Below, piece after piece: positions 18,835 to 40,601 of a stretch of DNA of 64,000 bases (within the stretch, counting starts at the first letter, position 1; each line of letters opens with the position of its first letter). Source of the DNA: a bacterium (GTDB lineage Bacteria; SAR324; XYD2-FULL-50-16); the NCBI GenBank assembly GCA_032250835.1, contig JAVVEA010000002.1, positions 310,596 to 374,595 on the forward strand. Direction: 5' to 3'. Made by a program: the position numbers and the translations under genes. Under the pieces are notes generated by a model. It did not search any database, was not told the origin of the DNA, and was given only the letters and a program-made list of their open reading frames with translations.

Positions 18835-19300
18835 AAAGACTCTTTCCTTCTGGCAATGGGGAGCACGAAACTACGGGACGAAAAAGAGAGATGGGATTAC
18901 TTTCTTTGGCAGGCAAAGAAAGTAACAAAGAAACCTGCCCCCAGGCGGCTCGCCGCTAAGAGCCCCTACGCCAAGCTACGCTAAAAGCCAAAACTCGCCC
19001 TCGCTACGCTCGAAGCTCGAACAGTTGGCATTTGGCTGGGCAATACTCGCCGGCTCGCATTGCTACCCACGCAGCCCTCGGCCTGCGGCCTCGAAGCTGC
19101 TTAGCGTGGCTACGGGCTCTAAGCGCCTCACCAACGGGGGTATCAATAGCCAAAAAGCTTCAAGCCCTCGGCCTGACAGCCTCGAGGCTACTTAGCGCAG
19201 CTAGGGGCTCTAAGCCGCTCGCAAAAGGGATCCCAAGAGCCGTACACCGCAAGTTGTGGGTTTTACCGCTGCAAAAACAGGTAACTGTCACCGGATTTTA
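18835..19300 (+). repeat. Modular palindromic repeat element, copy A
   Basis: Inverted match to 22073-22477, with perfect blocks 18887-18940 vs 22370-22423 (54 bp) and 19200-19230 vs 22144-22174 (31 bp); also an inverted match to 28141-28650. Confidence 0.9.
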
Positions 19301-19616
19301 AACTGCCACCTGATTTCTATGCTGAAAGTATTCAACTTATCCATATGCCCCACTTCCCGTAAATTAGTTGAAAGAGGAATCTGCGTGCGTAATAATGGCT
19401 TTGCCGCGAGCCGCTTTTTTCGCTGCAATTAGCTCAGGCTGGGGGCCATCGATTTTCCCCATTTTCGGGCTACCGATCTCTTGAGGACTATGCGAACATG
19501 CCAGACAATACAGGATACACGGCTGAGGCTCTAGAATTTGGGAGCAACTGGAATTTAGCAAAGAAGTGTTTCCTAGAAGAGTCTCCAAAATATAACCCTC
19601 TAAAATATTTTTAAAT

Positions 19617-20645
19617 ATGGAACTGATTGAATATATTATCTCATATGAAGAGAATGACAGAACCGTACTATCTGCAGATCAAACCGATGATTTAAGTGAC
19701 TGGATAAGCGATACGCATAAGGCGGCGGGTACAGACACTCGAGAATGTTCTTTTCAGTCGGATACTGTAGAGTCATTTAGCCTCTTTCAAGCGCTTGTTA
19801 AGAAAGAGAAAACAATGGGCGAGGTAGCAGATCGACTAAGCGAGATGCTACTTTCGGCAATGATCGCTTCAAACCCACCTAAATCCATTCCCAAGTGTAG
19901 GTTTACCGTCTGTTTGGATATAAGTAATTCTGCAATTGTCTTGTCGCTAGCCGATTATAATAAAATTATTGATGAAACGCACACAAAGCGCCGTGGCCCA
20001 GCTTATGATAAGAGGTTTAATCGACTTCGTAGTTGTGTAGTGCCAATCCGGATTGGTCAACCAGAGCTACATGTCAATATTACTGGCACTCAGGATTATT
20101 GGATCAAGGACTTTTTGAGTTTGCGGGTAAAACGAACGGATTTCGCCAACTCGGATACCCTCTATCGCGCTGTATCTCAAGTCTATAGTCAAAACCTAAC
20201 TAAGTTTAAAGCAGATAGGTCCTTACTCCTTGCCGAACTTGTGCGGGCTATTCGAGATCATGGTCAAAAAATAAATCCAAGAGATTTACCTGAAAAAATT
20301 AAGACATACCATCCGGTTGATAGTACTCTTGATATAAATGCTCTTTCTGAAAAAGTTCGCAAGGCAATTGATAAAAAAATCAATAAAGGAGAATTGGATG
20401 CGGAATTTAATTCTGATAAAGATGCTGTTAAGGGGAAGCACGCAACTTCCATTCACCATATTAAAAACGGCATTACTTTAACGGTCAATATTGATGATGC
20501 CGATTTAAAATCGTCTGTCTATAGGCTGAAAAACGGAGATCAGGAAGGCATATTTATACCTGTAAATGGGGCAGAAGGAGATACGATTACTTGGGAGAAA
20601 CCGGTAGAGACTATTGATGCAGCTGACGCAACGGACGGGCAATGA
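19617..20645 (+). CDS. Nucleoid-associated protein (YejK/NdpA/NA37-like), putative
   Basis: AT-rich 342-aa ORF; QDYWIKDFLSL...RTDFANSDTL resembles the YW..FL...D..NT segment of this family; recognised by eye only. Confidence 0.55.
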   Translation: MELIEYIISYEENDRTVLSADQTDDLSDWISDTHKAAGTDTRECSFQSDTVESFSLFQALVKKEKTMGEVADRLSEMLLSAMIASNPPKSIPKCRFTVCLDISNSAIVLSLADYNKIIDETHTKRRGPAYDKRFNRLRSCVVPIRIGQPELHVNITGTQDYWIKDFLSLRVKRTDFANSDTLYRAVSQVYSQNLTKFKADRSLLLAELVRAIRDHGQKINPRDLPEKIKTYHPVDSTLDINALSEKVRKAIDKKINKGELDAEFNSDKDAVKGKHATSIHHIKNGITLTVNIDDADLKSSVYRLKNGDQEGIFIPVNGAEGDTITWEKPVETIDAADATDGQ

Positions 20646-22063
20646 GCCTGACCAATTCACTAATTAATTGCTTTGAAGGACGTATTGATGTTTCGGTAAA
20701 GGAAACGTTCTACGAATATTCCATTTCATTTTCGATTGACCTAACTTCGATAGAAGTAAAAGCGGATCAGCTCGTAGAAGTGCTGAAAGGGGTTAAGGAT
20801 CAATGGGAAATCAGTTTTTTTGATTATTCTGCTCAATTTGCCCGAGACACAAACTATCAAGTTGATTTGACTGTGTATCTGAGTGGGTTAAAGGATGATC
20901 AAGTCGATTCAGCGCCGACTAAACTATTGATCAAAAAGGAGTCTGAAAATGGCGAAATTATTTGTTACGATGCGAATGCATTTGTCGACTCCTTAAAAGC
21001 TGACCCGACAATCGTAATAGCTCAGTTCGGTACTCTGAAAAGGAAGTTGAGTACACTTAGGTTGCGATGTTTTGACGGGTCCAACGCACCTGGAACGTCA
21101 TTCCTAAATGCGACTGATAATGCACGCTTTGTTCAGTCAATAGACTGGGGCGTCCTTTTCCAGGATGCTCATTTTGAACAGTACAAGGATTACCCATTTC
21201 AGCCGGGAGACTTTTTCCTACAGCGGGAGACAGGGAGTAAGTCCCTTAATCGCATAATGAATTGGTGGACATTGGCAATGTCGATTTGCCTTACTGCAAA
21301 TACGTCTTCGATAAGTTATGACAAGCAGACTCGCAGGTTTTTACTGAAGGCCGTCTTCCATGGAGTAAAGCCAGTAAATATTGAATTAAGCTCGACGACC
21401 CAAGTCTCCTATAATTTAGCAAATGCCTGGAAAGATTACTCAGACTGGGTATTTGACGGCCCTGGTATATCGGGACGTCTTGGAGTTTTTCGCAACGTTT
21501 ACACAAATAGTGCACAAGATGGGAAGCTAGGCTATTACGACCTGCTAAAGCCAGTAAAACAAGCGTTTTCAGTATATTTGAAAACTAATGCCAAAGACTA
21601 TGTAGAGATTCATAAAAAAATATTGGATAACATTGATCTAATGTCGAAAAACGCTCAATCAGCGGCAGATTCATTTTCAGCCAATTTTCGGACTGGATTT
21701 CTAGTGTCCCTAGGTTACTGCATAATGGCATTTTTCATTAAGTACCAGTCATCTAATAGGCTGTTTTCGCAGGAGTCATTGATTATCGGGACTGTATTGT
21801 GGTTTGTCGGGATTTTGCACCTCTGTTTAATGTGCTATCTGGCGCGGCAGGATCAGAAGCTTTTACGGAAAAATCAAGAAAAAGCAATGAATTCCTTCTC
21901 TGCCTTACTCCAGACTAAGGAGTTTGAAGAATCTTTTAGCGAGCCATTTCATGAAATCAATCACTCGTTAAAAGATAAGCTTGAGGTTTATGGGTTTCTT
22001 TGGGGTATCACACTCATTCTTTTTCTCGTTTTCTTGATCTGGGGATTCAGTTTGGTGTCGTAG
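20642..22063 (+). CDS. Hypothetical protein with a large soluble N-terminal domain and 3 C-terminal TM helices
   Basis: ATGA overlap with the upstream gene; hydrophobic segments GFLVSLGYCIMAFFI, LIIGTVLWFVGILHLCLMCYL and VYGFLWGITLILFLVFLIWGF. Confidence 0.8.
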   Translation: MSLTNSLINCFEGRIDVSVKETFYEYSISFSIDLTSIEVKADQLVEVLKGVKDQWEISFFDYSAQFARDTNYQVDLTVYLSGLKDDQVDSAPTKLLIKKESENGEIICYDANAFVDSLKADPTIVIAQFGTLKRKLSTLRLRCFDGSNAPGTSFLNATDNARFVQSIDWGVLFQDAHFEQYKDYPFQPGDFFLQRETGSKSLNRIMNWWTLAMSICLTANTSSISYDKQTRRFLLKAVFHGVKPVNIELSSTTQVSYNLANAWKDYSDWVFDGPGISGRLGVFRNVYTNSAQDGKLGYYDLLKPVKQAFSVYLKTNAKDYVEIHKKILDNIDLMSKNAQSAADSFSANFRTGFLVSLGYCIMAFFIKYQSSNRLFSQESLIIGTVLWFVGILHLCLMCYLARQDQKLLRKNQEKAMNSFSALLQTKEFEESFSEPFHEINHSLKDKLEVYGFLWGITLILFLVFLIWGFSLVS

Positions 22064-22072
22064 ATGAGGGCT

Positions 22073-22620
22073 TGAAAATTCGGGGACAGTCACCTATTTC
22101 TGCAGCCATATATTTGGAGACCCGCGGATTACGCTCCTTGGGTTCCCTTTTGCGAGCGGCTTAGAGCCCCTAGCCGAAAGGAGTGTAAAAAAAGCCAAAC
22201 TGTCTGAGCTTCGAGCATGGAGAGTCGGCTTCGCCGACGGTTAACATGAGCAACACTCGCCGGCTCGCGTCGCTACGCCCGCAGCCCTCACTTCGTTCGG
22301 TGCTGCTTGGCGGGGCGAGTTTTTGGCTTTTAGCGAGTGAGGCGTAGGGGGTCTTTGCCGCGAAGGTGAGGGCAGGTTTCTTTGTTACTTTCTTTGCCTG
22401 CCAAAGAAAGTAATCCCATCTCTTTAATTCCTTCCGTAGTTTTGCGCTCCCCAGTACCAGAAAAGAGAGATCACCTTTGCCAATACAACGCTCACCGGTT
22501 CGCGTCGCTACGCACTCAGCCCTCGGCGCTGATATGTTCTAAGGGAATGTTGGCATCGCCAACGGCTTTGGTCTGGCAACCGCTGGTTCGCGTTGCTACG
22601 CACGCAGCCCCTCCGGCCCC
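22073..22620 (-). repeat. Modular palindromic repeat element, copy B, plus two extra short modules
   Basis: Reverse complement of copy A; same orientation as copy C (22197-22335 vs 28426-28562 nearly identical). Confidence 0.9.
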
Positions 22621-22706
22621 CAACCCCAACCCCGCTTTGCGCCTTGGCAGGGGCCACCCCTATTTGGTAAGCTGCTCCCAGAGCAACCCCCCTCCCTTGA
22701 GGTCCT

Positions 22707-24230
22707 ATGGCGGATCAAGCTTACCAGATTGCGGTGATCGGCGGCGGTATCAACGGCGCAGGCATCGCCCGTGAGGCGGCCTATCGAGGTTATCGCACCC
22801 TCCTAGTAGAGCAGGGCGACTTCGCCCAAGCCACCAGCAGCCAGTCTTCCAAACTGATCCATGGCGGCATCCGCTACCTAGAACAAGGCCGCCTGGGTTT
22901 GGTCTTTGAAGCCCTGCACGAGCGCGCCCATCTACTGCGCATTGCCCCCCATCTGGTCCACCCGCTCCGGCTGCATATCCCTGTATACCAAGGCGACGCC
23001 CGCCCCCCCTGGATGATCGGGATCGGCTGTTGGCTCTATGACCTCTTAGCCGGAAGCCGCAACCTAGAGCCCAGCCGACGGGTGCCCCCCAGCGAATGGG
23101 AACAACTGGGCGGGCTTCAGCGAGAAGGCCTCAAAGCGGTCTTCGCCTATTCAGATGCCCAAGTTTTTGATGCCCGCTTAACTCTAGAAACCGCTCTGTC
23201 TGCGGCCCAAGCGGGGGCCGATATTTTTAACTACACCTCCCTTGAGGCCGCCCAAAACCAAGGCGATGGCTGGCTTTTGGAATTAAAAGACCAGCGCAAC
23301 GGGCAAAGCCGCCAAATCCAAGCTCAGGTGGTGGTCAACGCGGCGGGAGCCTGGGCCCCCCAGTTGGACTCCTGGTTCACTCAAAAAAAGAAACGGCCCG
23401 GATTGCGCTTTTCTCGGGGTATCCATCTGGTCTTCGATGGGCCCGCCACCCCGCAGCCCGCATACTTGACGCTGCCCGAAGGGGGCCGGGTGGTTTTTGT
23501 TTTGCCCTGGATGGGTAAGACCCTGGTGGGCACCACCGAATCGGACTTTACCGACCCGCCCACCGCCAAGGTGCCGCCCAGCGAAGAGGAAATCAATTAT
23601 CTGCTAAAGGTTTACGGGCACTACTTCCCCCAGCTAAAGCCCCAGCGAGAGCAAGTCCGCTACATCCATTCGGGCCTGCGCTCCCTGATCGACCGGGGCG
23701 AACGGGACTTAGGCAAGATGTCTCGTGAAGCGCAGTTCGAAGGGGAACAACTGCCCGGCGGGGCCGCCTATTGGTTGGTATTAGGTGGCAAGATCACCAC
23801 CTACCGCAGTCTGGGGCGCAAGCTCCTGGACCAACTGGGCCGCTGGAATCCCTCGGACCGGCGGGCTCATCTGGATACCGCCGTCGAGCCCTTGCCCGGT
23901 GCGGAACCGCTGGATCAAACCCGCCTGTCTAAAGCCCGAGCCGACTTGGCCCAAGCCGGGCTGGGTCCGGCCCAAGAAGCCCGGTGGGTCGCCGCCTATG
24001 GGACCCGCTGGGTGCAGGTGGCTCGTTATTTACGCTACCGCGACACCAACGAAGACCTGACGGGGCAGGGCTTTCTGCGGGCCGAACTGCGTTATTTGGT
24101 GCAGCAAGAGATGGCCTGGACCTTGGACGACATTACCCAGCGGCGTACCCTGATGGCCTACGACCTGAAACCTGAGCAAATCAGAATATTGTCCAGAGCC
24201 TTAACAGAAGAGCGGCGCTGGAAGCCTTAA
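22707..24230 (+). CDS. glpD: FAD-dependent glycerol-3-phosphate dehydrogenase
   Basis: GGGINGAG, TSSQSSKLIHGGIRYLE, GTTE and GGKITTYR motifs. Confidence 0.9.
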   Translation: MADQAYQIAVIGGGINGAGIAREAAYRGYRTLLVEQGDFAQATSSQSSKLIHGGIRYLEQGRLGLVFEALHERAHLLRIAPHLVHPLRLHIPVYQGDARPPWMIGIGCWLYDLLAGSRNLEPSRRVPPSEWEQLGGLQREGLKAVFAYSDAQVFDARLTLETALSAAQAGADIFNYTSLEAAQNQGDGWLLELKDQRNGQSRQIQAQVVVNAAGAWAPQLDSWFTQKKKRPGLRFSRGIHLVFDGPATPQPAYLTLPEGGRVVFVLPWMGKTLVGTTESDFTDPPTAKVPPSEEEINYLLKVYGHYFPQLKPQREQVRYIHSGLRSLIDRGERDLGKMSREAQFEGEQLPGGAAYWLVLGGKITTYRSLGRKLLDQLGRWNPSDRRAHLDTAVEPLPGAEPLDQTRLSKARADLAQAGLGPAQEARWVAAYGTRWVQVARYLRYRDTNEDLTGQGFLRAELRYLVQQEMAWTLDDITQRRTLMAYDLKPEQIRILSRALTEERRWKP

Positions 24231-24257
24231 AAATCTATTCTCACTGGGAGTGATCAG

Positions 24258-25157
24258 ATGAAGGTAGGATTTATCGGCCTAGGGGCCATGGGGGCCCCGA
24301 TGGCCTGGAACGTCTTTAAGGCCGGAATGGACTTGGCGGTATACAACCGCAACGCGGCGCGCTGCCAGCCCTTCGCCGAGCAAGGTGTTTTCGTGGCCCA
24401 AAGCCCTGCCGAACTGGCGGCCAGGGTGGACCGGTTGGTGGTCATGGTGACCGGGCCCGAAGCCTTAGAAGCCGTCCTCTTCGGGCCCCAGGGGGCGGTC
24501 GAAGGGCTGGCCCCCGGCTCGATTCTGGTCAATATGTCCACCGTCTCCCCCACCGCCACCCTTGCGTCCGCCCGCCGCCTAAAAGCGCAACAGGTAGACT
24601 GGGTGGACGCGCCGGTTTCGGGCACCGTGGGCCCCGCCCAGACCGGTCAACTGGTGGTGCTCGCCGGAGCGGAGCCTAGCATCTTGGACCGGGTCCGGCC
24701 CCTTTTGGCGGCCATGGGCAGCGGCTTGGTGGAGTGTGGGCCCGTTGGGGCTGGAACCCAGATGAAGCTGGCGGTTAACCTGCTGCTCGCCGGGGCGATG
24801 GAAACGCTGGCCGAAAGCATGATTTACGCCCAGTCGGCGGGGCTGGCACCGGAGCGGTTGATGGAGGCTTTGGGCCAAGGGGCGCTGAACGCGCCGCTGT
24901 TTCTGCTTAAGGGGCAAGCAATCATCGAGCGCCGCTTCACCAAGGCCTTCCCAGTGGACTTGGTGGCCAAAGACTTGGGGCTGGTTTTAGATGACGCCGA
25001 ACGCACAGGCGTGCAACTCCCCCAAACCCGCCTGAACCTTCAGCGTTACCATAAATGCCAAGGTATGGGGCATGGTGACGAAGACATGGCGGCCTTAGTC
25101 AAGGTCTTAGAAGAGACCGCCCAGATCGAGGTGCGGGGCTCCAAAAACCCGGATTAA
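24258..25157 (+). CDS. NAD(P)-dependent beta-hydroxyacid dehydrogenase (MmsB/GarR family)
   Basis: GFIGLGAMGAPMA, DAPVSG, MKLAVN and KDL motifs. Confidence 0.9.
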   Translation: MKVGFIGLGAMGAPMAWNVFKAGMDLAVYNRNAARCQPFAEQGVFVAQSPAELAARVDRLVVMVTGPEALEAVLFGPQGAVEGLAPGSILVNMSTVSPTATLASARRLKAQQVDWVDAPVSGTVGPAQTGQLVVLAGAEPSILDRVRPLLAAMGSGLVECGPVGAGTQMKLAVNLLLAGAMETLAESMIYAQSAGLAPERLMEALGQGALNAPLFLLKGQAIIERRFTKAFPVDLVAKDLGLVLDDAERTGVQLPQTRLNLQRYHKCQGMGHGDEDMAALVKVLEETAQIEVRGSKNPD

Positions 25158-26071
25158 GCCCGCCGCCCGGCCGCTAAGGCCAAGCGGTCGGCCACCAATT
25201 GGATCTCTTCTCCCTGGAATAGTTTGGCCCGCCAGTCTGCGGGAATGGCTGGGTAGCCGTAAAAGGCCCCGGCCAGCTGCCCGGCCACAGCGGCGACGGT
25301 GTCAGCGTCATAACCCAAGTTGGCCGCTTCTAAGAGGCATTCTTTAAGGCTGTGGGTTTTATAAAAACACCAAAGCGCCGCCTCAAGGGTATGGACCACA
25401 TAGCCGGTGCTTTCGATCTCTTCGATCCCCTTGCCCCGGTAGCTGCCCCGGCCCAAGGCGGCAATCTTCGGGCTTAAGATGGTCTCGAAGCCGTGGCGCA
25501 ATAAAATGTCTTCTTTGCTAGCACCGCCAAAGGCCAAGTAAAGCATGGCCGCAAAAAGCCCGCAGGCCTCGACGCACTCTGGGGCCGAATGGGTGGTGTT
25601 GCTGCTTTTTTTGGCGAAGCGGATGGTGGCATCGCGGTCGTCATGAAAGAAAATGGGCACCGGGGCGAGCCGCATTAAGGAGCCGTTGCCCGCCGTCAGC
25701 GGGTCGATGTCACCGCAATAGGGCTCTTGGGTCACCACAAAGCGGATCAGGGATTTGTTGGTGGCCACGCCGATGTCAAAGCACTTACCGGTGCTGCTCA
25801 TGTACCCTTCGTCGCGCCAGGCTAGGTAGCGTTCCATCTGGTCTAAAGGATCAAAGCCGCCGGACTCGATCAGGCTGTGGGCTAGGCATAGAGCCATGCT
25901 GGTGTCGTCGGTCCACTGGCCGGGCAGCAGGTTAAATACGCCGCCGCCTCGGATATCTTCGATGGGCTCAAATTCCCCGCGCTTTTTAAACTCCGCCGCC
26001 ACGCCCAGGGCATCGCCCACCGCCAAGCCCACCATAGAGCCCCGAAATCGGTCCAATCGCTCTATAGACAT
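25154..26071 (-). CDS. ADP-ribosylglycohydrolase family protein
   Basis: GDALG, WTDDT, GNGSLMR and DADT motifs. Confidence 0.92.
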   Translation of the reverse strand: MSIERLDRFRGSMVGLAVGDALGVAAEFKKRGEFEPIEDIRGGGVFNLLPGQWTDDTSMALCLAHSLIESGGFDPLDQMERYLAWRDEGYMSSTGKCFDIGVATNKSLIRFVVTQEPYCGDIDPLTAGNGSLMRLAPVPIFFHDDRDATIRFAKKSSNTTHSAPECVEACGLFAAMLYLAFGGASKEDILLRHGFETILSPKIAALGRGSYRGKGIEEIESTGYVVHTLEAALWCFYKTHSLKECLLEAANLGYDADTVAAVAGQLAGAFYGYPAIPADWRAKLFQGEEIQLVADRLALAAGRRA

Positions 26072-26076
26072 AACCT

Positions 26077-26358
26077 CTAAGCACCCTGGTTGTGGGGCAG
26101 GTTGCGGTAAAGCAGCTTCATCGCCAATAGCGAAGCCACTAAAATCAAAGAAAAAACATTGGCCAGGATCACCGGCAACTCACCTAAGAGTAGGCCATAG
26201 GCCAGCCAAAGCAGGATGCCCAGCGTGAAGGTGGCAGCCCAACTGAGCGATAAATCCCGCACCTGTTTGCTGCGGTAGGTCTGCCAGACCTGGGGCAAGA
26301 AGGCTAAAGTAGTCAAAAGTCCGGCCAGCAATCCGATGCTTTGTGTCGTTAAATCCAT
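26077..26358 (-). CDS. SemiSWEET (PQ-loop) transporter
   Basis: TTLAFLPQV, DLS, WLAYG and PVILAN motifs; 3 TM helices. Confidence 0.9.
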   Translation of the reverse strand: MDLTTQSIGLLAGLLTTLAFLPQVWQTYRSKQVRDLSLSWAATFTLGILLWLAYGLLLGELPVILANVFSLILVASLLAMKLLYRNLPHNQGA

Positions 26359-26482
26359 TTAGGGACCTTATGGTATAGATTTATTTGCTTTTAGCCCGCT
26401 TAAAGGCTCTCTTTCAAGGCCATTCGCCCCTTTTCTTCGGCTCCATGCTGGGGTATATTTAAGCCCAATCCCCAGGAGCCTG

Positions 26483-28039: not shown

Positions 28040-28140
28040 TGCCCGGTTTGGCTGTTAGGTTTACAGCTAATTCCCACTTTGAAGTTAAACTTCCGACTAT
28101 TTCAAACTCTCTGGCTCAATCCAAAGCTTGACTGCGTAGT

Positions 28141-28650
28141 TCCCCTTTTTTGCGAGCAGCTTAGAGCCCATATAGCCACGCTAAGCAGCTTCGAGGCCGC
28201 AGGCCGAGGGCTACGTGGGTGGCAATACGAGCCGGCGAGTATTGCCCAGCCAAAAAGCCCGCTGTTCGAGCACTGAGCATAAGAAATAGACTTCAACGAC
28301 CTTTTTATATGGGGCAACCCTCGCATCGCTACGGACTCGAAGCTCCTTGGTGGTTAGGGCCTTTATGATACCCCCGTTGGTGAGTCGCTTAGAGCCCGTA
28401 GCCAAACGAAGCGTTAAGAAAGCCAACTGTTCGAGCTTCGAGCGTTAGGGAGTCGGCTTCGCCGACGGCTTACATGAGCAACACTCGCCAGCTCGCGTCG
28501 CTACGCCCGCAGCCCTCACTTCGTTCGGTGCTGCTTGGCGGGGCGAGTTTTGGCTTTTAGCGTAGTTTGGCGTACGGGGTCTTAGCGGCGAGCCACCTGG
28601 GGGCTGGTTTTTTTGCTACTTTTTTTGCCAGCCAAAAAAAGTAGTCCCAT
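28141..28650 (-). repeat. Modular palindromic repeat element, copy C
   Basis: Contains modules of both A (inverted) and B (direct); lies between convergent genes. Confidence 0.88.
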
Positions 28651-28786
28651 CCCTTCAATTCGAACAATAGCTTTGTGCTTCTCATAACTCGAATGGCAAA
28701 GCTACGCCCATCGCTGTTTGGCTAAGATTTGCTTGAAAGTTGCTGTGCTGAATCGGTTGCGCCGAGTTTTCATGTGGGCAACCGCC

Positions 28787-30850: not shown

Positions 30851-33800
30851 TCACTCCAACAGGTTGCGGTCTTTTAAAATTTGCACCAAGGGGCGCTGGA
30901 ACAGGGCCTGAACTCCGTAAGCTCCCCCTTTATCGACCAAGATGCCCCGCTCCACCAATTGATCAAAACGGTAGCGGCTCTCCTGCTCGTTGATCCGGAA
31001 TACCTGGGCTTGCTCGCTCACACTCAACCGCTCGTGCAGCAGGACGGCTTGAAGGCAAAAGAGCTCGGCTTTGGATAGCTGGCTTAAGGACTTAAGGTTA
31101 AACCTCACCTCCGAAGACAGGACCAGCGTCTGGTCCTCCACCGACTCCACCGCGCGGACCCAATGGAATAAAGCTTGGCCAATGTTTGCCCCGCTAACCT
31201 GGGCTAGGGTTTCAAAAAACTCGGCCTGAGCCATTCCTTGGCGTTCTTCTTCGGAAGATGCCTCACGGTAACTTTTGGATTTGGCCAGCTCGGCACTGGC
31301 GCTGTATTTTAAATGGAACCCACTCAATTGGTGCCGTCTCAAGACCAATTCTTTTAAATCAGCGGGGCTAGGGGTGGAAAGCGATAAAACCTGCTCAAAC
31401 TGATGGGATATCTGCACCACCCGGTCTAGGTAGTTCCAAGCTAATTCGCCGCAAAAGTTGATCCACAGGATTTTGGCCTGGGTCTGGTGTTGCAGCAAGA
31501 TGAATTGGCGCAGCAGTTCAAAACCTCCAGGAACTCTTAAAAAGAGACGATCCAGGCTTTCCACGCCAACCACTCTGGCAGCGGTCCAGGTCAGGATGTC
31601 CGCTTCGATTTCGCTAAGGCTTGGGCAAGGCCTCATTCCCAATGCATCGCACAAGACCTCGACCAAATCCGCCTCGGCAAGGCAGCGGTGCTCTAGTTTG
31701 ATTCTAGCCGTGGCGTAGTCACCAAAGGCGCGGCTTTGGGCTATCTGCCAGAGCGAACTTTTACCGGCTCCTTTGGCACCGACCACCGCCAGGGAACCAT
31801 GCCCTTGGGCTTGGTGCTTCTCGAATACCTCGGAGACTACCGCCATTTCGGCCTGACGGGCCAAAAAGAAGCGGTCATCGGCCAGCGGCTCGTTGCGGAA
31901 GAGGTGGCGGTAAACATGGGGCAGTGCAAAGATCCGGTCACGAGATTCACTGATCAGGGACTTAAGCCGTAATTCCTGGGCACTGCCCACCGTAAGGCCC
32001 GTATATTGTCGGAATTGTTGGTAAAAATCGCTGAGTTTTTGGTAGTGGCTCTGGGTCCATTCGACCAACTGAGGCCAAGCCGCGCTCAGGCTTTTTTGGA
32101 GGCTGCGCTGGATTTGGTGCAGCCGCTCGCGGCCCTTCACCTTGGCGCTCATCAATTGCAGGCTCAATACCTTTTCATGGTCCACCAGTGCCTGGGCGGT
32201 GGCCCCTAATTTAGAGGTTTCTTCTTGCATTAATTGGCGGGTCTGCTTGCGTAGCTTCTGGTCCAACTCTGCGAGATGGTCAAGGCGGTCCAAGGCCCGA
32301 CCCATGGCATCGGTAAATAGGTGGGGACGATCTACAGGAGCGGTGCCTTCGTCGCGGATGCGCAGCAGTACGGAGCCAAAGTTGACGTCCAAGAGTTGGT
32401 CCAATTCATGGACCGAGACGACTTGGGCGGTATATTCACGGCCGTTTTTTTCCCAAAAGCTATCGAGCCGCTCTTTTAGGGAAGAAAAAATTTCGCTGTC
32501 GATGATCTCATAAAAGGCCACCTGCCGGGTTTTTGTCTTGGGGTTTAACGGGTCTGCCTGTCGTTCTTGCAATAGCGACATCTCGGCGGGGAACTGCGCT
32601 AAAGTTGCCGTTAACGCATCCCTATAGGCTTGGAGGTCCAGTTTGGGGTGGTTGGTTTTTAAACATTCCAACAATTGGGGCTGTAGCTGGTAACGCAGTT
32701 CGTTGGTCAGGGCGCGCAATTGCTCGCCTGCTTGGTCGATTGAAGTTTGCGGGTCCTGCTGGTCCCGCCAAGAGATCAGGTGGTCGTGCAGAGCGTCGAT
32801 CTGCTCATTAACGGCCTTTCCCTGGACTTGTAGCAGCTTAAAAATCAAGTCTTGGGTCACCGCTGCGGCGCGCGCACTTAAGAGATAAAGCTCGCCGTCC
32901 TTTTTTTGGTCTTGGTCCCAGGCGGTCCAATAGGCGGCCCAAGCTTGGGTGAGCCCTTCGGCTCGGGCTTTTTGTTGTTTCTGGGCTTGGGCGGCGCGCC
33001 CCGGACGGTAACGAGAGGCCGGATAACCCCAACCACCAGCGTACAGGAATCCCTGGGCGAAGTCTGCCCATTGGCGCTCGAAGGCGAGTTTCAAGCGTGA
33101 TTGGGAGTTTTCTTGTAGCTGAACCAACTGCCCGCACAGCTCCCTGAGCCGCTCGGCCAGGGACTCTTGATCGGTTTTGGCTTGCAAGATGGCCTCGTCG
33201 CTGCGCTCTTGCAACAGGCCATGCAAAGCCCAACAGGCCCGGTTGTGCCCCTCAAAGGCCTCGCCCAATTGGCCGTAAAGCTCCGCCAAATCCGCCGCCC
33301 AGCGGCCCGATTCTTCTAACCAAAAGGCATAAAGGGGGGTGCCCAGATGGGTAGCCAATAATCCGGCCAAGGAAAAACTGCGGTAAAACTGGGGTTCCGC
33401 AAGGGCCTCGCGGGAGCGCCAGGCGCGCCAACGGTTAGCCAAGGAGCGGGTGAACCGGGCCCAAGCAAAGCGCCTGCGCTGGCTCCACATCCAAAGCCCA
33501 ACCCGAAGCGAAGGGGCCGGGCCGGCTACCAGGGGGTCAGTTAACTCTAAATCCAGTTTGCTGGGCCAAAGGGCCAAGCTTTGCTTAAGTTGCGCTTCCC
33601 AGGAATCGGCCCAAAGCTTCGGAGAAACCTGCCCTAGTTCTTGGATCAAGTCCCCGTTCCATTGCGGCAAGGCCTCAAAAAAGGCCAAGTACCCCAAAAT
33701 AGCCTCGGCTAGGTCGTCGATCAAAAAGGGGGGCTCACGCTTGGTAATCGGTGCCGTCGCCTGCTCCAAAAGCCGCTCAAGCAGACTTAACAGACGCCCA

Positions 33801-33901
33801 AATTCCGGCGCTACTTGCGCGCTCACCTGCCGGTCCAAGGCGGACAGCAGTTCCTTTTGGATCTGATCAAGCCAGCTTTGAATGGACAAGACAGGGGCCA
33901 T
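30851..33901 (-). CDS. Large helical protein with a C-terminal P-loop ATPase and winged helix
   Basis: Walker A GAKGAGKS near the C-terminus; immediately upstream of the MscS gene; start uncertain (33901 or 34039). Confidence 0.75.
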   Translation of the reverse strand: MAPVLSIQSWLDQIQKELLSALDRQVSAQVAPEFGRLLSLLERLLEQATAPITKREPPFLIDDLAEAILGYLAFFEALPQWNGDLIQELGQVSPKLWADSWEAQLKQSLALWPSKLDLELTDPLVAGPAPSLRVGLWMWSQRRRFAWARFTRSLANRWRAWRSREALAEPQFYRSFSLAGLLATHLGTPLYAFWLEESGRWAADLAELYGQLGEAFEGHNRACWALHGLLQERSDEAILQAKTDQESLAERLRELCGQLVQLQENSQSRLKLAFERQWADFAQGFLYAGGWGYPASRYRPGRAAQAQKQQKARAEGLTQAWAAYWTAWDQDQKKDGELYLLSARAAAVTQDLIFKLLQVQGKAVNEQIDALHDHLISWRDQQDPQTSIDQAGEQLRALTNELRYQLQPQLLECLKTNHPKLDLQAYRDALTATLAQFPAEMSLLQERQADPLNPKTKTRQVAFYEIIDSEIFSSLKERLDSFWEKNGREYTAQVVSVHELDQLLDVNFGSVLLRIRDEGTAPVDRPHLFTDAMGRALDRLDHLAELDQKLRKQTRQLMQEETSKLGATAQALVDHEKVLSLQLMSAKVKGRERLHQIQRSLQKSLSAAWPQLVEWTQSHYQKLSDFYQQFRQYTGLTVGSAQELRLKSLISESRDRIFALPHVYRHLFRNEPLADDRFFLARQAEMAVVSEVFEKHQAQGHGSLAVVGAKGAGKSSLWQIAQSRAFGDYATARIKLEHRCLAEADLVEVLCDALGMRPCPSLSEIEADILTWTAARVVGVESLDRLFLRVPGGFELLRQFILLQHQTQAKILWINFCGELAWNYLDRVVQISHQFEQVLSLSTPSPADLKELVLRRHQLSGFHLKYSASAELAKSKSYREASSEEERQGMAQAEFFETLAQVSGANIGQALFHWVRAVESVEDQTLVLSSEVRFNLKSLSQLSKAELFCLQAVLLHERLSVSEQAQVFRINEQESRYRFDQLVERGILVDKGGAYGVQALFQRPLVQILKDRNLLE

Positions 33902-34265
33902 AACTCTGAGGGTATAAGGGGACGTTCCTCTATAGAGTAAAGGCCCGCCACCTAAAAGACTAGAAAATTCGTGGGTTGTGTGGCTGGCTCCGGGTTGGGG
34001 TAGTGGGCACTGAAAAAGCGGTCTAGACTCCGGTTGCATTTGAGTCGGGCTTTGGGTTAGCAGCTGATTTTAAATCTTAAATTTCCTTGACCGAGCGGTT
34101 GCTTAGGCCCGAATAATGGACCTAACAGAGCCTAAACCCAGACGGCCTAAGCTTAAGTTGAGTGAATTTGGTGCGAAGCTAACCTCACTTTTTAGCCGGA
34201 CACCGCCCTACTTGGGTCGCTACATACGTTTTTTTGCTCATTAAATCCCACTACCGGAGATCCCT

Positions 34266-34907
34266 GTGATCAACCTGCTCAAAACGATTCTGCGGGCCTC
34301 CCCGCTCTTCCCTGTCATCAAGGGTTATAAGTTACAACAAGAAGTGAAAGCCTGGGAAGCTCAGGGAAAAACCGGCCCCAGCCCGGCGTTGGTCAAGCGC
34401 CAAAACCTAAAGGAGGTGGCCCAGGCCCAGGGGACTAAGATTTTTGTGGAAACCGGAACCTTTATGGGCGATACCCTGGCGGCTTTGGCAGAGGATTTTG
34501 ACCAGCTTTATTCGGTGGAGCTTGCCCCTGCCTTGTATGAGCGGGCTTGTAAGCGTTTTGCTGGCGTCGACAAGATAACCCTGTTTTTTGGCGACAGCGG
34601 CCAAGTTTTGGGGGAACTCTTACCGAAGCTGAAGGAACCGGCCCTCTTTTGGCTGGACGGGCACTACTCCGCCGGGGAGACGGCCAAGGGGGACAAAGAA
34701 ACCCCGATTTTAGAAGAGCTAGGCCATATTTTCGCCACCGAGCCGAAACATGTGATCGTCATCGACGATGCCCGCTGCTTTGCCGACGAAGCCCCCGAAC
34801 CGGACTACCCCACCTTAAGCCGACTCCGGGCCTTCGTCGCCCAGCGGGCCCCGCACCTAGAAATGGAAGTCCGCGACGACGCGATCTTTCTTTCGCCGAA
34901 GGGGTGA
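34266..34907 (+). CDS. Class I SAM-methyltransferase-like protein
   Basis: FVETGTFMGDT, SVEL, GDSG, FWLDGHYS and VIDDAR motifs. Confidence 0.7.
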   Translation: MINLLKTILRASPLFPVIKGYKLQQEVKAWEAQGKTGPSPALVKRQNLKEVAQAQGTKIFVETGTFMGDTLAALAEDFDQLYSVELAPALYERACKRFAGVDKITLFFGDSGQVLGELLPKLKEPALFWLDGHYSAGETAKGDKETPILEELGHIFATEPKHVIVIDDARCFADEAPEPDYPTLSRLRAFVAQRAPHLEMEVRDDAIFLSPKG

Positions 34908-35017
34908 GAGGTTGGGCGGAGGGTTGTCGGTTCGGGCCAGCGGGCTGAATTTGGGGCTGCTTAAAATACAGTAGGTTGTCTATATCCCTGGCTTATAAGG
35001 GGCCGAGGGTACTTCTC

Positions 35018-35054
35018 TTGACGATAGTTCCTAATATGCGTACAATATACGCAT
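35018..35054 (+). promoter_or_regulatory. Sigma70 promoter with overlapping operator for the TA operon
   Basis: TTGACG-N17-TACAAT; the palindrome ATGCGTA-N5-TACGCAT (35036-35054) covers the -10 box. Confidence 0.8.
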
Positions 35055-35069
35055 GACACCGGAGGAAAC

Positions 35070-35330
35070 ATGAGCAAGACCCGCATCAATCTCAGCTTAG
35101 ATGCCGATTTGGCCAGCTTCGCCAAGGACTTCGCCGCTGAGAACCGCACCACCGTATCGGAGGTGTTCACCCAATATCTCTTGGGGCTCAAGCGGCACGC
35201 CATGGGACGCCCCCAGCCAACCTTCCTGGCCGACCCAGCCTTTAACGAGGCCTTGGCGCAAGCCCAGCAACGCCTGCAACAAGGAAAGGCGAGCTGGTCT
35301 AGCTTCGATGAAGTCTTTAAAGAGCCTTGA
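35070..35330 (+). CDS. Ribbon-helix-helix antitoxin (DUF6364-like)
   Basis: KTRINLSLD...AKDFAAENRTTVSEVF; GGAGG RBS; overlaps the toxin start. Confidence 0.8.
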   Translation: MSKTRINLSLDADLASFAKDFAAENRTTVSEVFTQYLLGLKRHAMGRPQPTFLADPAFNEALAQAQQRLQQGKASWSSFDEVFKEP

Positions 35331-35641
35331 TGGAGGCGCTCTTTGAACGGGATTTCGTCAAAGCACTGAAAAAACATGCCTCGATCAAAAAAGCCGTGGA
35401 GCGCAAGGTGTTGCCGATCATCGAGCACCCCTTGGTGTTCGGCGAGCCCCTTCAGGGAAACTGGCGGGGTTATTATTCCTGCCCGGTGCAACGAAATTTC
35501 ATCATCATCTATCTGTACTGCGCCGCCTGTCGCTCCAAACAAGACGATCTAGCGGTGCAATGTAGCGACTGCAGCGAGCGAGCGGATCAGACGTTAAAGT
35601 TTCTTGTGCTGGGGCCCCATGATCAAGCCTATGGTTTGTAA
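35327..35641 (+). CDS. RelE/YafQ-superfamily toxin with an inserted CxxC..CxxC motif
   Basis: FERDFVKALKK, EPLQGNWRGYYS, FIIIY and LGPHDQAY motifs. Confidence 0.8.
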   Translation: MMEALFERDFVKALKKHASIKKAVERKVLPIIEHPLVFGEPLQGNWRGYYSCPVQRNFIIIYLYCAACRSKQDDLAVQCSDCSERADQTLKFLVLGPHDQAYGL

Positions 35642-35814
35642 GCACAATATCTTGGGTTTGATTCGTAGCGAAACCTTGTGAGTGTGCTGTCGCCGGATTA
35701 CCAGGGGGCTGAATTGGGGGCTGGCCAAAATACAGTAGGTTGCCTAGTTTAAAGGAGCGGTGCCGGTAAACTACCAATCCATTGGGGGCCAGTGCTCGAA
35801 CCGGATAAAAAAAG

Positions 35815-36219
35815 ATGGGAACGGAAATGGATGCGAATGAACGGCCCGATAAGGGCGAAGACGAAAAGTTTTGTGCCGATTGCGGCCAATTGATCCACAA
35901 GAAGGCCGAAATCTGCCCCAAATGCGGGGTGCGGCAAATGGCCCCGCCAACAAATCTGGTCCAAACTCGGGGGCGTCAACGGATAGTAGCCGCGCTGTTC
36001 GCCTTTTTCCTCGGCGCGATAGGCATCCACCAATTCTACCTGGGGAGGGTCTTACTGGGTGTTGTCTACTTGCTCCTCTGCTGGACTTTCATCCCCGCCA
36101 TCATCGCCTTCATTGAAGCAATCCTGCTGTTAATTATGAGCGACGAAACCTTCGACTATAAATTCAACCCCCAACTGGTGGCTTTATCTAAGCGGCAACA
36201 GGGCGAGACAGCCACCTGA
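35815..36219 (+). CDS. Zinc-ribbon plus TM2-domain membrane protein
   Basis: FCADCG...ICPKCG, AALFAFFLGAIGIHQFYLG and CWTFIPAIIAFIE motifs. Confidence 0.88.
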   Translation: MGTEMDANERPDKGEDEKFCADCGQLIHKKAEICPKCGVRQMAPPTNLVQTRGRQRIVAALFAFFLGAIGIHQFYLGRVLLGVVYLLLCWTFIPAIIAFIEAILLLIMSDETFDYKFNPQLVALSKRQQGETAT

Positions 36220-36272
36220 CTTAGGGTGGAATGGGTGTTTACCTTCTGATTTCAACACAACCTATGTTTTAC

Positions 36273-36457
36273 AAAATCAGAGGACAGCATACCTATTTTT
36301 TCGCAGCGGGGCGCACGGAGTTTGCAAGTACGTGATTCCTTGCCCAGATGGTAGCAAGTAGCGAATACAGAAGCTTGATTGGTGGAAAATCAGGGGACAG
36401 ATACCTATTTTTCGCAGCGGGGTGCAAGGAGTCTGCAAGTAGGCGATTCCTTCCCAG
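36273..36457 (-). repeat. Tandem ~73-bp imperfect repeat (36273-36347, 36386-36457) carrying the cassette-end motif
   Basis: Both copies read AAAATCAGRGGACAG..ATACCTATTTTT.CGCAGCGGGGyGCA.GGAGTyTGCAAGTA...GATTCCTT.CCCAG. Confidence 0.85.
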
Positions 36458-36701
36458 TATAGAAATGGGCGAAACAAAATATGAGCAATATATTTTGGCA
36501 CGATCAAGTGTTTTCGCTAAAGCCGCTAATCTCACGAAGGAAAGAATTTATTTCGTGTCTGAAAGTCGAAAGGACAAGGACTAAGAGTAGTCGTCCTATC
36601 TCCTGATTTCCCCCCTGCTTTTTTATGTAGGGACATGTCATGACATAAAGACAGGACAGAAGTTACGCCCATGTCGTGGAAATAGATATACTGTCACCTG
36701 A

Positions 36702-37050
36702 TTAACGAAACAGGCCGCTGATCAAGGTCTGATAATTCACCCTCTCGTTGGCGGCCATGATCTTGATTCCGCCCCGGTCCGCTTTGGGGCGGATGATGGC
36801 GCGTTTCGATTTTTCAAGCTGTTGCGGGCCAGTCCTGAGCCTCTTTTTCGACCCCCTCAGGGCCCCTTCGCCGCCCCCAACCCGCTCACCACGCCCCAAC
36901 TCGCCCAACAACTCCGCTTCTTCCGCGCCCAAGCGCTTGTGAGCTTGGGGGACGGTAAGGCTTTGTTTCTGGGGCTTGTGGAGAAATTTGCGGTCGGATT
37001 CTTCAAGTAGCAATCAATGGTTTGGGCGGTTTCTACAAGAGGCAATCAAA
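36702..37050 (-). pseudogene. Degenerate toxin-antitoxin remnant (CopG-like antitoxin plus toxin C-terminus)
   Basis: LGAEEAELLGELGRGE...KSKRAIIR...AANERVNYQTLISG resembles CopG-type antitoxins; the upstream LPLVETAQTI resembles a toxin C-terminus; no clean starts. Confidence 0.55.
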
Positions 37051-37123
37051 AGCTGAGGTGGCCGTACCTGAAAATCCGAGGCAATAGGGCGTTCTAGGCC
37101 GCAGCCCTTAATCTCCTGAACGC

Positions 37124-37320
37124 AACCAGCAAGCGAAGGCATTTCATCCCATTTAATTCTATGTGTTAGGCTGTATAAATTGGTATTCTGTCACCTGAGT
37201 TTATAGGGCGCTTTAGAGCACAGCAGCAAATGACTCGCGCATAACCGGCAAGTGAAGGAATTTCATTCCATTAAATTCTGTGGATTAGGTTGTATAAATT
37301 GGTGTTCTGTCGCCAGATTT
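37124..37320 (+). repeat. Tandem ~78-bp imperfect repeat (37124-37202, 37243-37320) ending in the cassette-end motif
   Basis: Both copies read AACCRGCAAGyGAAGG.ATTTCAT.CCATT.AATTCT.TG...TTAGGyTGTATAAATTGGTRTTCTGTCRCC.GA.TTT. Confidence 0.85.
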
Positions 37321-37524
37321 AGAATCTCATTTCCAGCTACAAAAAATTACAAGCAGTTAGCTAAAAAATGATCGCGGACCTCAGGCAAAGAAACTGAAGC
37401 CCAGGGCCGGATTCCGACTTTTTTACAGGTGGGTTTGGCAAGACCCCAATCTTTAGTCCAATTCTTAAGTAAGACTTAGCATGGGATGACGTACCCGCCT
37501 TGGACGTTGCCCTAAAAGGAAAGA

Positions 37525-40254
37525 TCAGACCCCGCCAATCCGTTGATCAATGGCTTCCAAAAAAAACTTTTGTTCGCGTTGGGCCCGAGCCAGCAGGTCG
37601 GCATCGAGCTGAACTCCCTTGCTAGCCAGCAACTCGCAGACTTCCATCACCTCCGAAAGTGCTAGCCCACCAACTTGGGCGGCAGTTCCCTTAAGCTCGT
37701 GCGCCATCTCAAAGGCCTCGTCGAAGCGCTGCTCGGACCAGTGCTCAAATAGCTGCTCAACTCCGTGGGCATGTAACTCGCGGTAAAGCTCAAGCAGCCG
37801 ATCGAGTCTTTCGGCCTTGCCACTGAAGTATTCCAAGGCCACAGAGAAATCGACTGCCCGGGTACTCTCAGGTTTACTCATTCGTTCACCGACCAGCGGT
37901 TGCTCCTCATTTTTCCGAGAAAGCCAGCGGATCAGACAGGCTTCCAGTAGAGCGACTTCAATCGGCTTGGTAATGATGTCGTCCATCCCCACCGAACGGC
38001 ATTTTTCCTGCTCCTCCAAAAAGGCATGGGCAGTCATCGCCACGATGGGGATACGCCGCGCCGCTTGCGTATCGGCTTCGTATTTTCTGATTGCTTGGGC
38101 CGCCGCGCGTCCGTCCATCTGAGGCATCTGGATATCCATCAACACCAAATCGTAGGCTTTAGACTGAAACTGCTCGGTTGCTGCGACTCCGTTATCGACG
38201 ACATCGACCTTCAAGCCGTAGGATTCTAACAGGTCGACGGCCAACTCCTGATTGATTTTATTGTCCTCGGCCAGCAGTAGACTGGCTCCGACGATGGCCT
38301 GCAATGCCACCGGTTTTCTTTGGGGCGAATCTGGATACAGGCTGGATTTAGAGTCTGTGAAGAGATCAATGATCATTTGGCGTAGGTGGCTGGGACCGAC
38401 CGGTTTGAACAGTTGGGCATCGAAGGAGCCTTTTTCGTAGATTTCGTCGATGCTGGTCGGGTCGGAACCGGAGACCAAAACAATTTTTGGCGTTGGTTGC
38501 AGTTTTGGATCTTGGCGAAGGATCTGGCACAATTGTGAGCCATCTATCCCAGGCATCCTCAGATCCAGCAGCACCAGATCGACCGGACCGCTTTGTTCGT
38601 AATGGTTGTAGATACTCTCCAACGCTTCCTCACCGGACTCAAAGAACTCCGTTGGCCGTTCGAATGGGGGCATGATCTCTTTCAGGTGCTCCAGCATCAT
38701 CGGGTTGTCCTCGACCACGTATACTTTGAGAGCAAGCAGTTCAGGGGGATATTCGACAGGGTAATCGGCTCCAGGAGACTGCCGGCCAAAGGGCATCGAA
38801 ACCGTGAATTTCGTCCCCTGGTCCGGCTGGCTGGAAACACCCATTTTACCACCCATGGCTTCGACCAACCGTTTGGCGATTGACAAACCCAGTCCTGTGC
38901 CACCGTATTTTCGGCTGGTCGAGCTGTCGGCTTGGCTAAAGGGTTGGTACAATTTTTCTATAGTCTGGACTTCCATGCCGACGCCAGTATCGGTCACCTC
39001 AAAGACTAATTCGACCCAATCCCTTTGCGCCTGTATTTGGCTGATCGACAGCGTTACAGATCCCGCTTTGGTATATTTAATTCCGTTCGAAAGCAGGTTG
39101 ATCAAGACCTGTTCGACCCGCAGGATATCCCCCTTCAACTCTACCGATATATCCGGTTCTACGTCGAAGCGAAGTTCGATTTTCTTGCGGCGTGCTAACA
39201 CCCCCACCGCCGAAGCTACGTTGCCCAGTAGGACCGATAGGTCAAAGCAACTATTTTCCAACTCTAATTGCTGGGCCTCAATCTTTGAAAAATCCAAGAC
39301 GTCGTTGACTACCCGCAACAGCAACTGAGCCGATAGGTCGACTTTTTTAAGATAGTTGGCCTGTTTGACGTCTAAGTCAGTTTTAAGGCAAAGCTGATTC
39401 ATCCCGATGATCGCGTTGAGCGGTGTGCGGATTTCATGACTCATATTGGCCAGGAATTCTGATTTGGCTTGAGTTGCCGCTTGGGCCTCCTTTTGAGCCA
39501 GGAACAAGACGCCGATTTTTTGAGAAAAGAGCCTGAAGAAGTAAAATAACAAAACGAAGTAAGCCAAGGCGCGTAGAAAATGCCAAAGCCACCAAAGCGG
39601 GTCCCAAAGGGTTGAGCTTTCAAAGAGGATCCCCGCCATGCCAAAGAGAAGACAGTGATTGGCAAGAATGATCTGATCTTCACGGTGGGTTTGTGCATTC
39701 CGCTTGGTGAAGGTCCACCAGGCGAAGATAAAGCCGACGCCTCCGGTAACGTTGAGCACAATTGCCGCTGGAGTGAATCGTCCCATCTCCAACATGGCAG
39801 GCAGTAAGCTCTCATTGGCCATCGAAAAAATGCCCAGTACTATGGCGATGGCCGAGGCCGCAAAGGCGATCTGGTTGGCTGCCCGGTTGAGGTGGTCACG
39901 ATGGACGGCTACCAAAGCGATCATCATACCGCCAAAAAAGGTTGCTGTACTATGCAGCCAGACGAAGTTGTTTCCAGGGCTGGTGCAGGAATGAAATCCG
40001 TCGAGTAAGCCCATTGATAAGAGCGCAGCTGCCACCCAGAGATAGTAGGTTTCGACTTGGCGGTCGCGCAGTAGCAGCAAAATGAACGTTGAGATGATCA
40101 GTGCCGCCAAACTGCCCACCGACTCGATGAAGCCATGAAAAAGCTCATGATTCCACCTCGAGTCGGGAAAGAAGTGCATCAAACTGAACCCGAGCAGCAG
40201 CGGCAATACCAAAGAGGGCAGCAGCGAGGTGAGCGACGAGATCAGGATTTTCAT
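37525..40254 (-). CDS. Hybrid sensor histidine kinase (multi-TM sensor, HisKA, HATPase, 2 REC, Hpt)
   Basis: [37 protein letters not shown], two receiver domains and AHELKG (Hpt); start taken at ATG 40254. Confidence 0.93.
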
Positions 40255-40601
40255 TAGAATTGTCCGAGCCGAGTTCAGTGTATAGGGAGGTGATCGAGCG
40301 AATCCATTGTCTTTCCCATTGCGTAAAAGGATAGCATTGCCCTTCCCAAAGGGAAAGATATCAGATGCTAGATCTGACATGGTGCCAATCTCTGGACCCT
40401 TTTCGGGCGCAACGTCAATACCGAAGGGAGATCAAATTTCTGGTGACAGATTAGTAACAACTCAACCGGCTTCAACCGGTTTTCAGTGGACTTGAGTGGA
40501 TTCAGGACAGCTTAGTGAATGGTCTGTCGTTACTGATGGGGACTGAAATTAGCCTGTATATCAGAGCTTCGGGGAGAATCGAGGATTTTTGTGGCTTCCT
40601 T

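Follow-up and report, generated by a model that had tools for sequence, protein, structure and literature searches.

A 64,000-nucleotide stretch of the genome of a SAR324-lineage bacterium (assembly GCA_032250835.1, contig JAVVEA010000002.1, positions 310,596 to 374,595), hereafter the window, carries ten copies of a short motif with a CTGTC core, which the original prediction, made from this stretch alone, took for the borders of captured gene cassettes; they are considered here together with a Y1 transposase gene located elsewhere in the same genome. Direct reading of the letters confirmed all 10 copies at the coordinates first assigned to them, with forward CTGTC cores at 19285, 35687, 36691, 37188 and 37307, a degenerate CTGCC at 19303, and reverse copies at 22075-22106, 36273-36307, 36386-36418 and 40434-40449. 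The motif is real and far above chance, the 19-nt pattern GGTATRCTGTCNCCTGATT having five matches in the window at up to 3 mismatches against a shuffle mean of 0.02, and none of 100 shuffles reaching five. The first copy (19259-19301, forward strand; nhmmer match at C22:329854, 24.1 bits, E=8.8e-5) is placed by junction alignment at the inner end of an inverted copy of a second dispersed repeat family, LR, and is followed by a degenerate second half-site, CTGCCACCTGATTT (19300-19320, forward; read directly, nhmmer 12.0 bits). The reverse copy at 22074-22111, which has the GGGGACAG core, abuts another LR copy at 22107-22470 (nhmmer round 1, E=3.9e-4; round 4, 13.5 bits; junction alignment). A TM2-domain gene has a weak forward copy on its 5' side (35681-35699; 3 mismatches to the 19-nt pattern, 12.3 bits) and a reverse copy on its 3' side (36271-36312; 29.2 bits, E=2e-6), and the latter unit is duplicated locally, as a 48-nt direct repeat (D9), to give the reverse copy at 36386-36423 (22.2 bits). 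Forward copies follow at 36669-36707 (28.1 bits), at 37165-37203 (25.0 bits) within the first unit of a 118-nt tandem duplication (37084-37201 / 37203-37320), and at 37286-37323 (21.3 bits), where alignment to the tRNA-Gly(CCC) region of contig C14 has the 3' end of the motif merging into a tRNA-Gly 3'-end remnant. The last, a weak and partial reverse copy upstream of a hybrid kinase gene (40434-40473), was recovered in nhmmer round 1 only (E=0.015). A 46-nt direct repeat of 87% identity (34924-34982 / 35687-35746) occurs after two copies, the weak one at 35687 and one still further degraded near 34924, and this pair is a local duplication of motif plus flank. An Rfam scan of the window returned a tRNA-Sec as its sole match, with none on the motif or on LR.

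The genome-wide profile scan recommended in the original prediction revealed a dispersed family in the subject genome (G000; 3.66 Mb in 43 contigs, 97% complete). A profile that started from the nine alignable window copies and was iterated against the whole genome reached the consensus GAAAAATAGGTATACTGTCACCTGATTT, and its fourth nhmmer round gave 41 copies at E<0.01 and 66 at E<10; the 53 copies at 12 bits or more served for counts of orientation. With up to 2 mismatches, the 19-nt pattern has 32 matches in G000 and 0 in the reversed control. The family is extragenic, its members lying between called open reading frames (ORFs) or overlapping only short, unsupported ones, and it occurs both as singlets and as doublets in which a reverse copy precedes a forward copy: among pairs no more than 150 nt apart, five are (-)(+) and none is (+)(-). 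When six doublets were folded, alongside two shorter pieces, five exceeded shuffles in stability by a wide margin (z -3.05 to -11.7), the sixth showing no such excess (z -0.75). The hairpins from a relative, G015, reach -20.6 and -21.7 kcal/mol (z -9.9 and -11.7) and those on contig C5 of G000 reach -20.4 (z -6.1) and -15.8 kcal/mol (z -3.75), with 0 of 200 shuffles equally stable, while the C14 doublets comprise one at z -3.05 and the more decayed one at z -0.75. One of the C5 doublets reads GGCAG / CTGCC in its two arms against the consensus GACAG / CTGTC. Such doublets are the pattern of REPINs, the hairpin-forming inverted doublets of repetitive extragenic palindromic (REP) sequences, in a population that is small and partly decayed in G000. 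Also on contig C5 (40502-45951, locus L003), two directly repeated doublets enclose a pair of paralogous gene pairs (97% identity across 1023 nt), whose products resemble parts of open frames of about 2000 aa at contig ends in G000 and relatives.

ORFs were scanned around 18 motif-bearing loci of G000, and at one of these (L015) the ORF at G000:C43:2516-3175 matches Pfam Y1_Tnp (E=6.5e-11), the sole such match in the genome. It had been supposed that the GGGGACAG/CTGTCCCC core resembles the inverted ends found near genes for Y1 (HUH) enzymes like the REP-associated tyrosine transposases (RAYTs), that a motif-flanked gene of this type should be looked for, and that any enzyme would act in trans from outside the window. 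These suppositions agree with what was found: the gene lies on contig C43 between inverted motif copies at 2439-2463 (reverse) and 3166-3195 (forward), with a perfect 16-nt inverted repeat placed 61 nt upstream and 8 nt downstream of it. The core at the gene is GGTGACAG, the commoner form, which matches the sequence GGGGWSAS at 7 of 8 positions, and GGGGACAG, present in the window copies at 22075 and 36386 and in the flanks of homologues, fits it exactly. The encoded protein of 219 aa contains NHIH (residues 59-62), FQQRF and YVERNP (119-124), and N59, H60, H62, Y119, E121, N123 and P124 are invariant in an alignment of 12 sequences, the protein and 11 homologues; besides Y1_Tnp it has no Pfam match at E<=1e-5. 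None of the other recombinases of G000 (six Phage_integrase matches, one rve fragment and two DDE_Tnp_1 matches) adjoins a motif copy. The idea that the copies are Tn7-like end sites was dropped once the Y1 gene had been found, and no Tn7-type genes were seen beside any copy.

Gene and repeat recur, unevenly, in relatives. Homologues of the Y1 protein are patchy, occurring in 16 of 41 genomes (40 relatives and G000), the best being those of G015 (63% identity), G008 (59%), G017 (55%, partial) and G012 (54%). Several genera of one family are rich in the motif, the 19-nt pattern counting 88 matches in G015, 32 in G000, 31 in G017, 23 in G016, 18 in G004, 8 in G012 and 7 in G014, with 0-1 in reversed controls. 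The orthologues in G015 and G017, two genomes of one other genus, keep the order of reverse copy, gene and forward copy. GFA genes adjoin the Y1 gene in both G000 and G015, and their derivation from one moved cassette was excluded, as they are merely 30-35% identical. A survey of 18 homologue loci, some of them from records labelled Planctomycetes, Phycisphaerae, Nitrospiraceae, Acidobacteriota and Hydrogenedentota, gave 13 where an inverted repeat of at least 15 nt with the GACAG/CTGTC core flanks the gene and 3 without any such repeat. The repeat often reads AAAT(T)AGGGACAG(T/C)CACCTATTT, as in Planctomycetes, Phycisphaerae and Nitrospiraceae records. A repeat nearly unchanged across genera, with a core still recognisable across phyla, argues for long-term co-inheritance of enzyme and repeat.

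These data allow the motif to be assigned, with high probability, to the terminal inverted repeat (TIR) family, REP-like in kind, of the single-copy RAYT-like Y1/HUH transposase at C43:2516-3175, an element of the TIRYT or 'TIRtron' type. Di Nocera et al. (2013, PMC3733652) coined 'TIRtrons' for RAYT-like genes that have terminal inverted repeats on both sides and 'TIRYTs' for their enzymes, described many TIRs as having GGGGWSAS in common, and reported that some genomes hold moderately abundant TIR families as dimers or clusters. Quentin et al. (2018, PMC6006769) assign most TIRYTs to subclass 2.1 of TnpA-Y1, which equals Bertels group 1; its proteins, with a median of 238 aa, carry the motifs NHVH/NH[YF]H, FQ or W[EQ], and Y[IV]..NP, with Y...NP as the class 2 signature. 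The 16-mers that flank group 1 genes are, according to Bertels et al. (2017, PMC5581495), modestly abundant at most. Judged from sequence, both protein and repeat fit this published description. Mechanistically, the Y1 enzyme would nick and rejoin single-stranded DNA at the doublet hairpins and would spread doublets in trans, as proposed for REPINs, while singlets would be decayed or truncated doublets. Copies accumulate in dispensable, hairpin-rich intergenic DNA, here toxin-antitoxin and defence islands, LR and a tRNA remnant, and in relatives attC-like sites. Genes thus come to look bracketed through inserts in adjacent spacers rather than through transport of the genes themselves.

Several observations weigh against this assignment. 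The protein scores 63 bits against NF047646, the NCBIfam equivalog for REP-associated tyrosine transposases, whose cut-off is 80, and no solved structure matches it by sequence; neither transposition nor a target site nor activity was observed. Ten single copies, taken as single-stranded DNA, fold at 0 to -5 kcal/mol (z -1.6 to +1.4), and the single motif is therefore not called a palindrome, since these copies fold no better than shuffles, though the unit can be written as an AT-rich stem of 7-8 bp interrupted by a bulge of one base (AAAT.AGG / CCTATTT). The canonical REP 5' GT[AG]G foot is absent from both consensus ends and from the copies read, and for subclass 2.1 Quentin et al. (2018, PMC6006769) report that no canonical REP or REP-like sequences were found. 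The distributions of gene and repeat also diverge in places: G016 (23 copies) and G014 (7 copies; 68% complete) carry the motif with a best Y1 homologue merely 35-37% identical, and G008 (59%) and G026 (45%) have good orthologues yet no match to the exact 19-nt pattern.

The genes beside the motif are such as the original prediction described, the motif keeping to accessory intergenic DNA with toxin-antitoxin, defence and low-GC genes as neighbours. The first is a two-gene segment (19617-22063, forward strand) whose products, of 342 and 473 aa, match nothing in Pfam or PADLOC, the 473-aa protein occurring in 1 of 40 relatives; GC content is 41.1% over 19310-22070 and 54.7% for the window. The TM2-domain gene between motif copies (35815-36219, forward; Pfam TM2, E=3.1e-14) is found in 0 of 18 family relatives, and a hybrid histidine kinase gene, likewise between copies (37525-40380, reverse), has Pfam HisKA, HATPase_c, Response_reg and Hpt domains. 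Elsewhere in G000 the neighbours are ParE, HigB, PIN, HicB, TumE, CopG, Fic, a TIR/ThsB-like protein (TIR here being the protein domain), CARF and a UvrD/NERD helicase, together with a ZacB/ZacA-like pair that is in 0 of 18 relatives.

In an alternative, which is that of the original prediction, the (+)...(-) pair is itself a mobile unit and the Y1 enzyme excises and inserts the enclosed genes, comparable to the passengers of IS200/IS605; we consider it improbable. In its favour are the accessory nature of the enclosed genes, one segment having 41% GC, and the fact that the two-gene segment lies between inverted LR-plus-motif composites of about 450 bp whose motif ends (19259-19301 and 22074-22111) face it. 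Doublets also separate successive modules in contigs C14 and C5 and in G015. The orientation of neighbouring copies, to which the original prediction had pointed, shows a trend in the expected direction, with (+)...(-) the most frequent order of neighbours at distances of 151-7000 nt (9 of 22, against 3 (-+), 4 (++) and 6 (--)), but forward/reverse bracketing is not significant (p=0.075), and stricter cut-offs weaken it (6 of 17 at 17 bits, p=0.23; 5 of 15 at 20 bits, p=0.31). Moreover, (-)(+) doublets in successive spacers automatically place a (+)...(-) pair across each gene, and so the same bias is also expected from them. The Y1 gene's own flanks have the opposite polarity, (-)...(+), and 0 of 12 bracketed segments have a second full-length copy in G000. 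The two-gene segment has a sole homologue among relatives, in G007 (both genes at 26-28% aa identity), and there the motif is absent. That homologue adjoins, by eye, a tRNA-Sec-like sequence, and in the window about 400 nt separate a tRNA-Sec gene (40849-40947, reverse) from the weak motif copy at 40434. A last point for gene movement comes from C39:75317 and C43:50848, where different parts of a gene-like sequence abut the motif directly inside two copies on separate contigs. An intact paralogue is at C2:27323-27651, about 125 nt being missing between the fragments; an insertion and a later rearrangement at the repeat may have left this trace.

Relatives from the G015 genus provide a view of cassettes and doublets together. 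Two integron-like cassette arrays in G015, L076 (G015:C84:163000-180000) and L075, carry 7 doublets over 17 kb and 4 over 7 kb, respectively, these being perfect 58-nt palindromes set between small, mostly co-oriented genes (GNAT, glyoxalase, GFA, GrpB, PIN/MazE, HEPN-nucleotidyltransferase, methyltransferase, acyltransferase). Integron integrases are encoded in G015, G004 and G016 (448-463 bits against TIGR02249, cut-off 265), the genes standing at contig starts (L078-L080) in the same genus as L076. Single L076 cassettes recur at 71-95% nucleotide identity, scattered on other contigs of this genus, and four such loci (L082-L085) contain 0 motif matches; at the one readable junction, cassette homology starts not at the motif but at GTTAAGC, an attC-type core site, which argues against movement of cassettes by motif pairs. 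Within the arrays, doublets interrupt 118-nt imperfect palindromes with ..TAAC ... GTTA.. ends, located after the cassette ORFs and presumably attC-like, at least 4-5 of the 11 doublets read in G015 sitting inside such hairpins. Since homology starts at an attC-type core and doublets interrupt the 118-nt palindromes, the cassettes of this genus look integron-borne and the doublets look like later inserts in attC-like hairpins. A blastn comparison of six of the G015 attC-like pieces with G000 gave nothing relevant.

The arrays also bear on whether the motif is itself an integron-type attC site and the bracketed segments integron cassettes. The placement of 58-nt palindromes between small co-oriented genes of typical cassette families, in a genome that encodes an integron integrase, as G004 and G016 also do, would suit that explanation, which nevertheless appears very improbable. 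The motif has, by reading, no RYYYAAC/GTTRRRY core sites; the doublets of G015 interrupt attC-like repeats that are separate from them; the neighbourhood of the G004 integrase gene has ordinary attC-like sites and no motif; and the motif flanks a Y1 gene across phyla. G000 itself has no integron integrase, its best TIGR02249 score being 67 bits against the cut-off of 265. Nor is there support for the insertion of gene cassettes by the system, given that bracketing is not significant, that bracketed segments do not recur, that the G007 homologue lacks the motif and that G015 cassettes are bounded by attC-like sites. The cassette-capture or integron-like reading is thus unsupported by any test that was run.

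That the motif could instead be a promoter or operator of a transcription factor controlling an accessory-gene regulon is hardly plausible. A TATACT hexamer lies within the motif, half-sites occur in direct and inverted arrangements, and some copies are upstream of and co-oriented with a gene (19285 to 19617, 35687 to 35815 and 40449 to 40380). However, the next start codon stands anywhere between 54 and 332 nt from the motif, about equally many copies (22075, 36273, 37188 and 37307) face gene 3' ends, a sigma-70 promoter and terminator scan of 35500-37600 put no site on any of the five copies there, and linkage to a Y1 gene across phyla would be unexpected for an operator. Equally remote is a family of miniature inverted-repeat transposable elements (MITEs) moved by a DDE transposase, which inverted-repeat doublets and singlets in intergenic DNA do resemble, as G000 has merely one rve fragment and two DDE_Tnp_1 matches (one with a stop codon, the other on a 678-base contig), none of them near a motif copy.

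The LR repeat adds a further layer to the locus. In the window it is present at 18848-19258 (reverse; repeat search I2, I4, I6 and I14, alignment and blastn), inverted relative to the copy at 22107-22470 (forward; repeat search, alignments and blastn) and with the motif as inner terminus, and as a third, longer copy at 28040-28700 (forward; alignment and blastn) that has no recognisable motif end; a further LR-related stretch lies at 22482-22612. LR is more abundant than the motif family, with more than 20 blastn loci in G000, several of them at contig ends, and is built of hairpin-rich modules of about 93 nt. A reverse motif, a linker of about 75 nt and LR modules are common to nine loci; the linker has 14 matches, 10-11 of them preceded by a motif-like end, and the opposite end, a 12-bp-stem hairpin, also has 14 matches. 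LR may be a longer non-autonomous element with unlike ends. An LR-module-related tandem array with a 93-nt period (TRF) at G000:C33:57150-58400 is broken by N runs and belongs to an unresolved part of the assembly. An inversion of about 95 kb distinguishes G000 from its closest relative, G003, with one breakpoint at the spot occupied by LR, motif and two-gene segment (window 18676-22707) and the other lying between tightly adjacent genes at C22:234660/234666; because of this inversion, synteny with G003 is broken exactly after the DUF3334 gene, and G003 is too distant for a precise empty site. In three metagenome relatives (58-72% aa identity) the operon upstream is retained, the downstream part is different and there is no motif or LR; they are likewise too distant for a precise empty site. 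No public sequencing runs were listed for window 18600-22800. The tRNA remnant next to the motif at 37286-37323 (37322-37430, forward; blastn, 84% identity to C14:42102-42194; ARAGORN and alignment) consists of the 3' end of a tRNA-Gly(CCC) and about 85 nt downstream and starts within the 3' end of that motif copy, and is either a tRNA copy cut by the repeat or an old attachment-site duplicate.

The assignment to the Y1 enzyme gives some 40 to 60 unexplained intergenic repeats of G000 to one enzyme gene and adds a case to the TIR-associated RAYT-like transposases, a published but little-studied class. The presence of doublets in attC-like sites of a relative, and next to LR and a tRNA remnant here, hints at hairpin-seeking elements, and the repeats may mark, or help to create, rearrangement-prone borders of defence and toxin-antitoxin islands. 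A bolder version, which seems unlikely at present, would add to cassette dynamics a second, HUH-based layer made up of the Y1 enzyme and its repeats. Doublets would lodge preferentially in hairpins at module boundaries (attC-like sites in relatives, LR and a tRNA T-arm remnant here), and accessory genes between facing copies could then be excised, inverted or relocated, either by the enzyme or by recombination between copies. If true, such a layer would act even in a genome that, as G000, has lost its integron integrase.

Several known systems share parts of this picture. IS1111-attC insertion sequences and group IIC-attC introns are elements that target attC sites, and like the G015 doublets they are secondary mobile DNA in the attC hairpins of arrays; unlike them, the doublets carry no gene, and the enzymes are different. 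A link of TIRYTs or TIRtrons to attC sites was not found in print in a shallow literature search. With integron attC arrays themselves, the elements have in common palindromic sites between small accessory genes and a single-strand hairpin as substrate, whereas the enzyme is of another class, the motif, by reading, lacks R box core sites, and the relatives' doublets lie inside attC-like sites and do not replace them. Likeness to IS200/IS605 and its non-autonomous derivatives, the palindrome-associated transposable elements (PATEs), resides in HUH/Y1 chemistry on single-stranded hairpins and, for LR, in unlike ends, a motif hairpin on one side and the 12-bp-stem hairpin on the other; however, the signature here is Y..NP in place of Y...Q, the gene is single-copy, its flanks are inverted and not same-strand, and no tnpB was noted beside it. 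In the REP/REPIN-RAYT systems of Escherichia and Pseudomonas, as here, a Y1 gene present once lies between copies of its own repeat, the repeats are extragenic and over-represented, inverted doublets form hairpins with matching changes in both arms, and spread is presumed to occur in trans. In contrast to those systems, the repeats here have no 5' GT[AG]G foot, a single unit forms a weak hairpin, the score against the NCBIfam RAYT equivalog is below its cut-off, and copies number merely in the tens and are concentrated in accessory islands. TIRtrons differ in that here a near-unchanged 19-mer is common to several genera of one family and that the core and AAATAGG arm recur around homologues in other phyla, a breadth not found stated in the published text available. 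A C-terminal helix-turn-helix (HTH)-like domain is a published trait of this group. In its other features the system resembles the TIRtrons, with a RAYT-like Y1 gene of low copy number between TIRs that have the GGGGWSAS core (GGGGACAG or GGTGACAG), NH.H, FQ and Y..NP in a protein of about 220 aa, and TIRs that are also a moderately abundant dispersed family with dimers and clusters.

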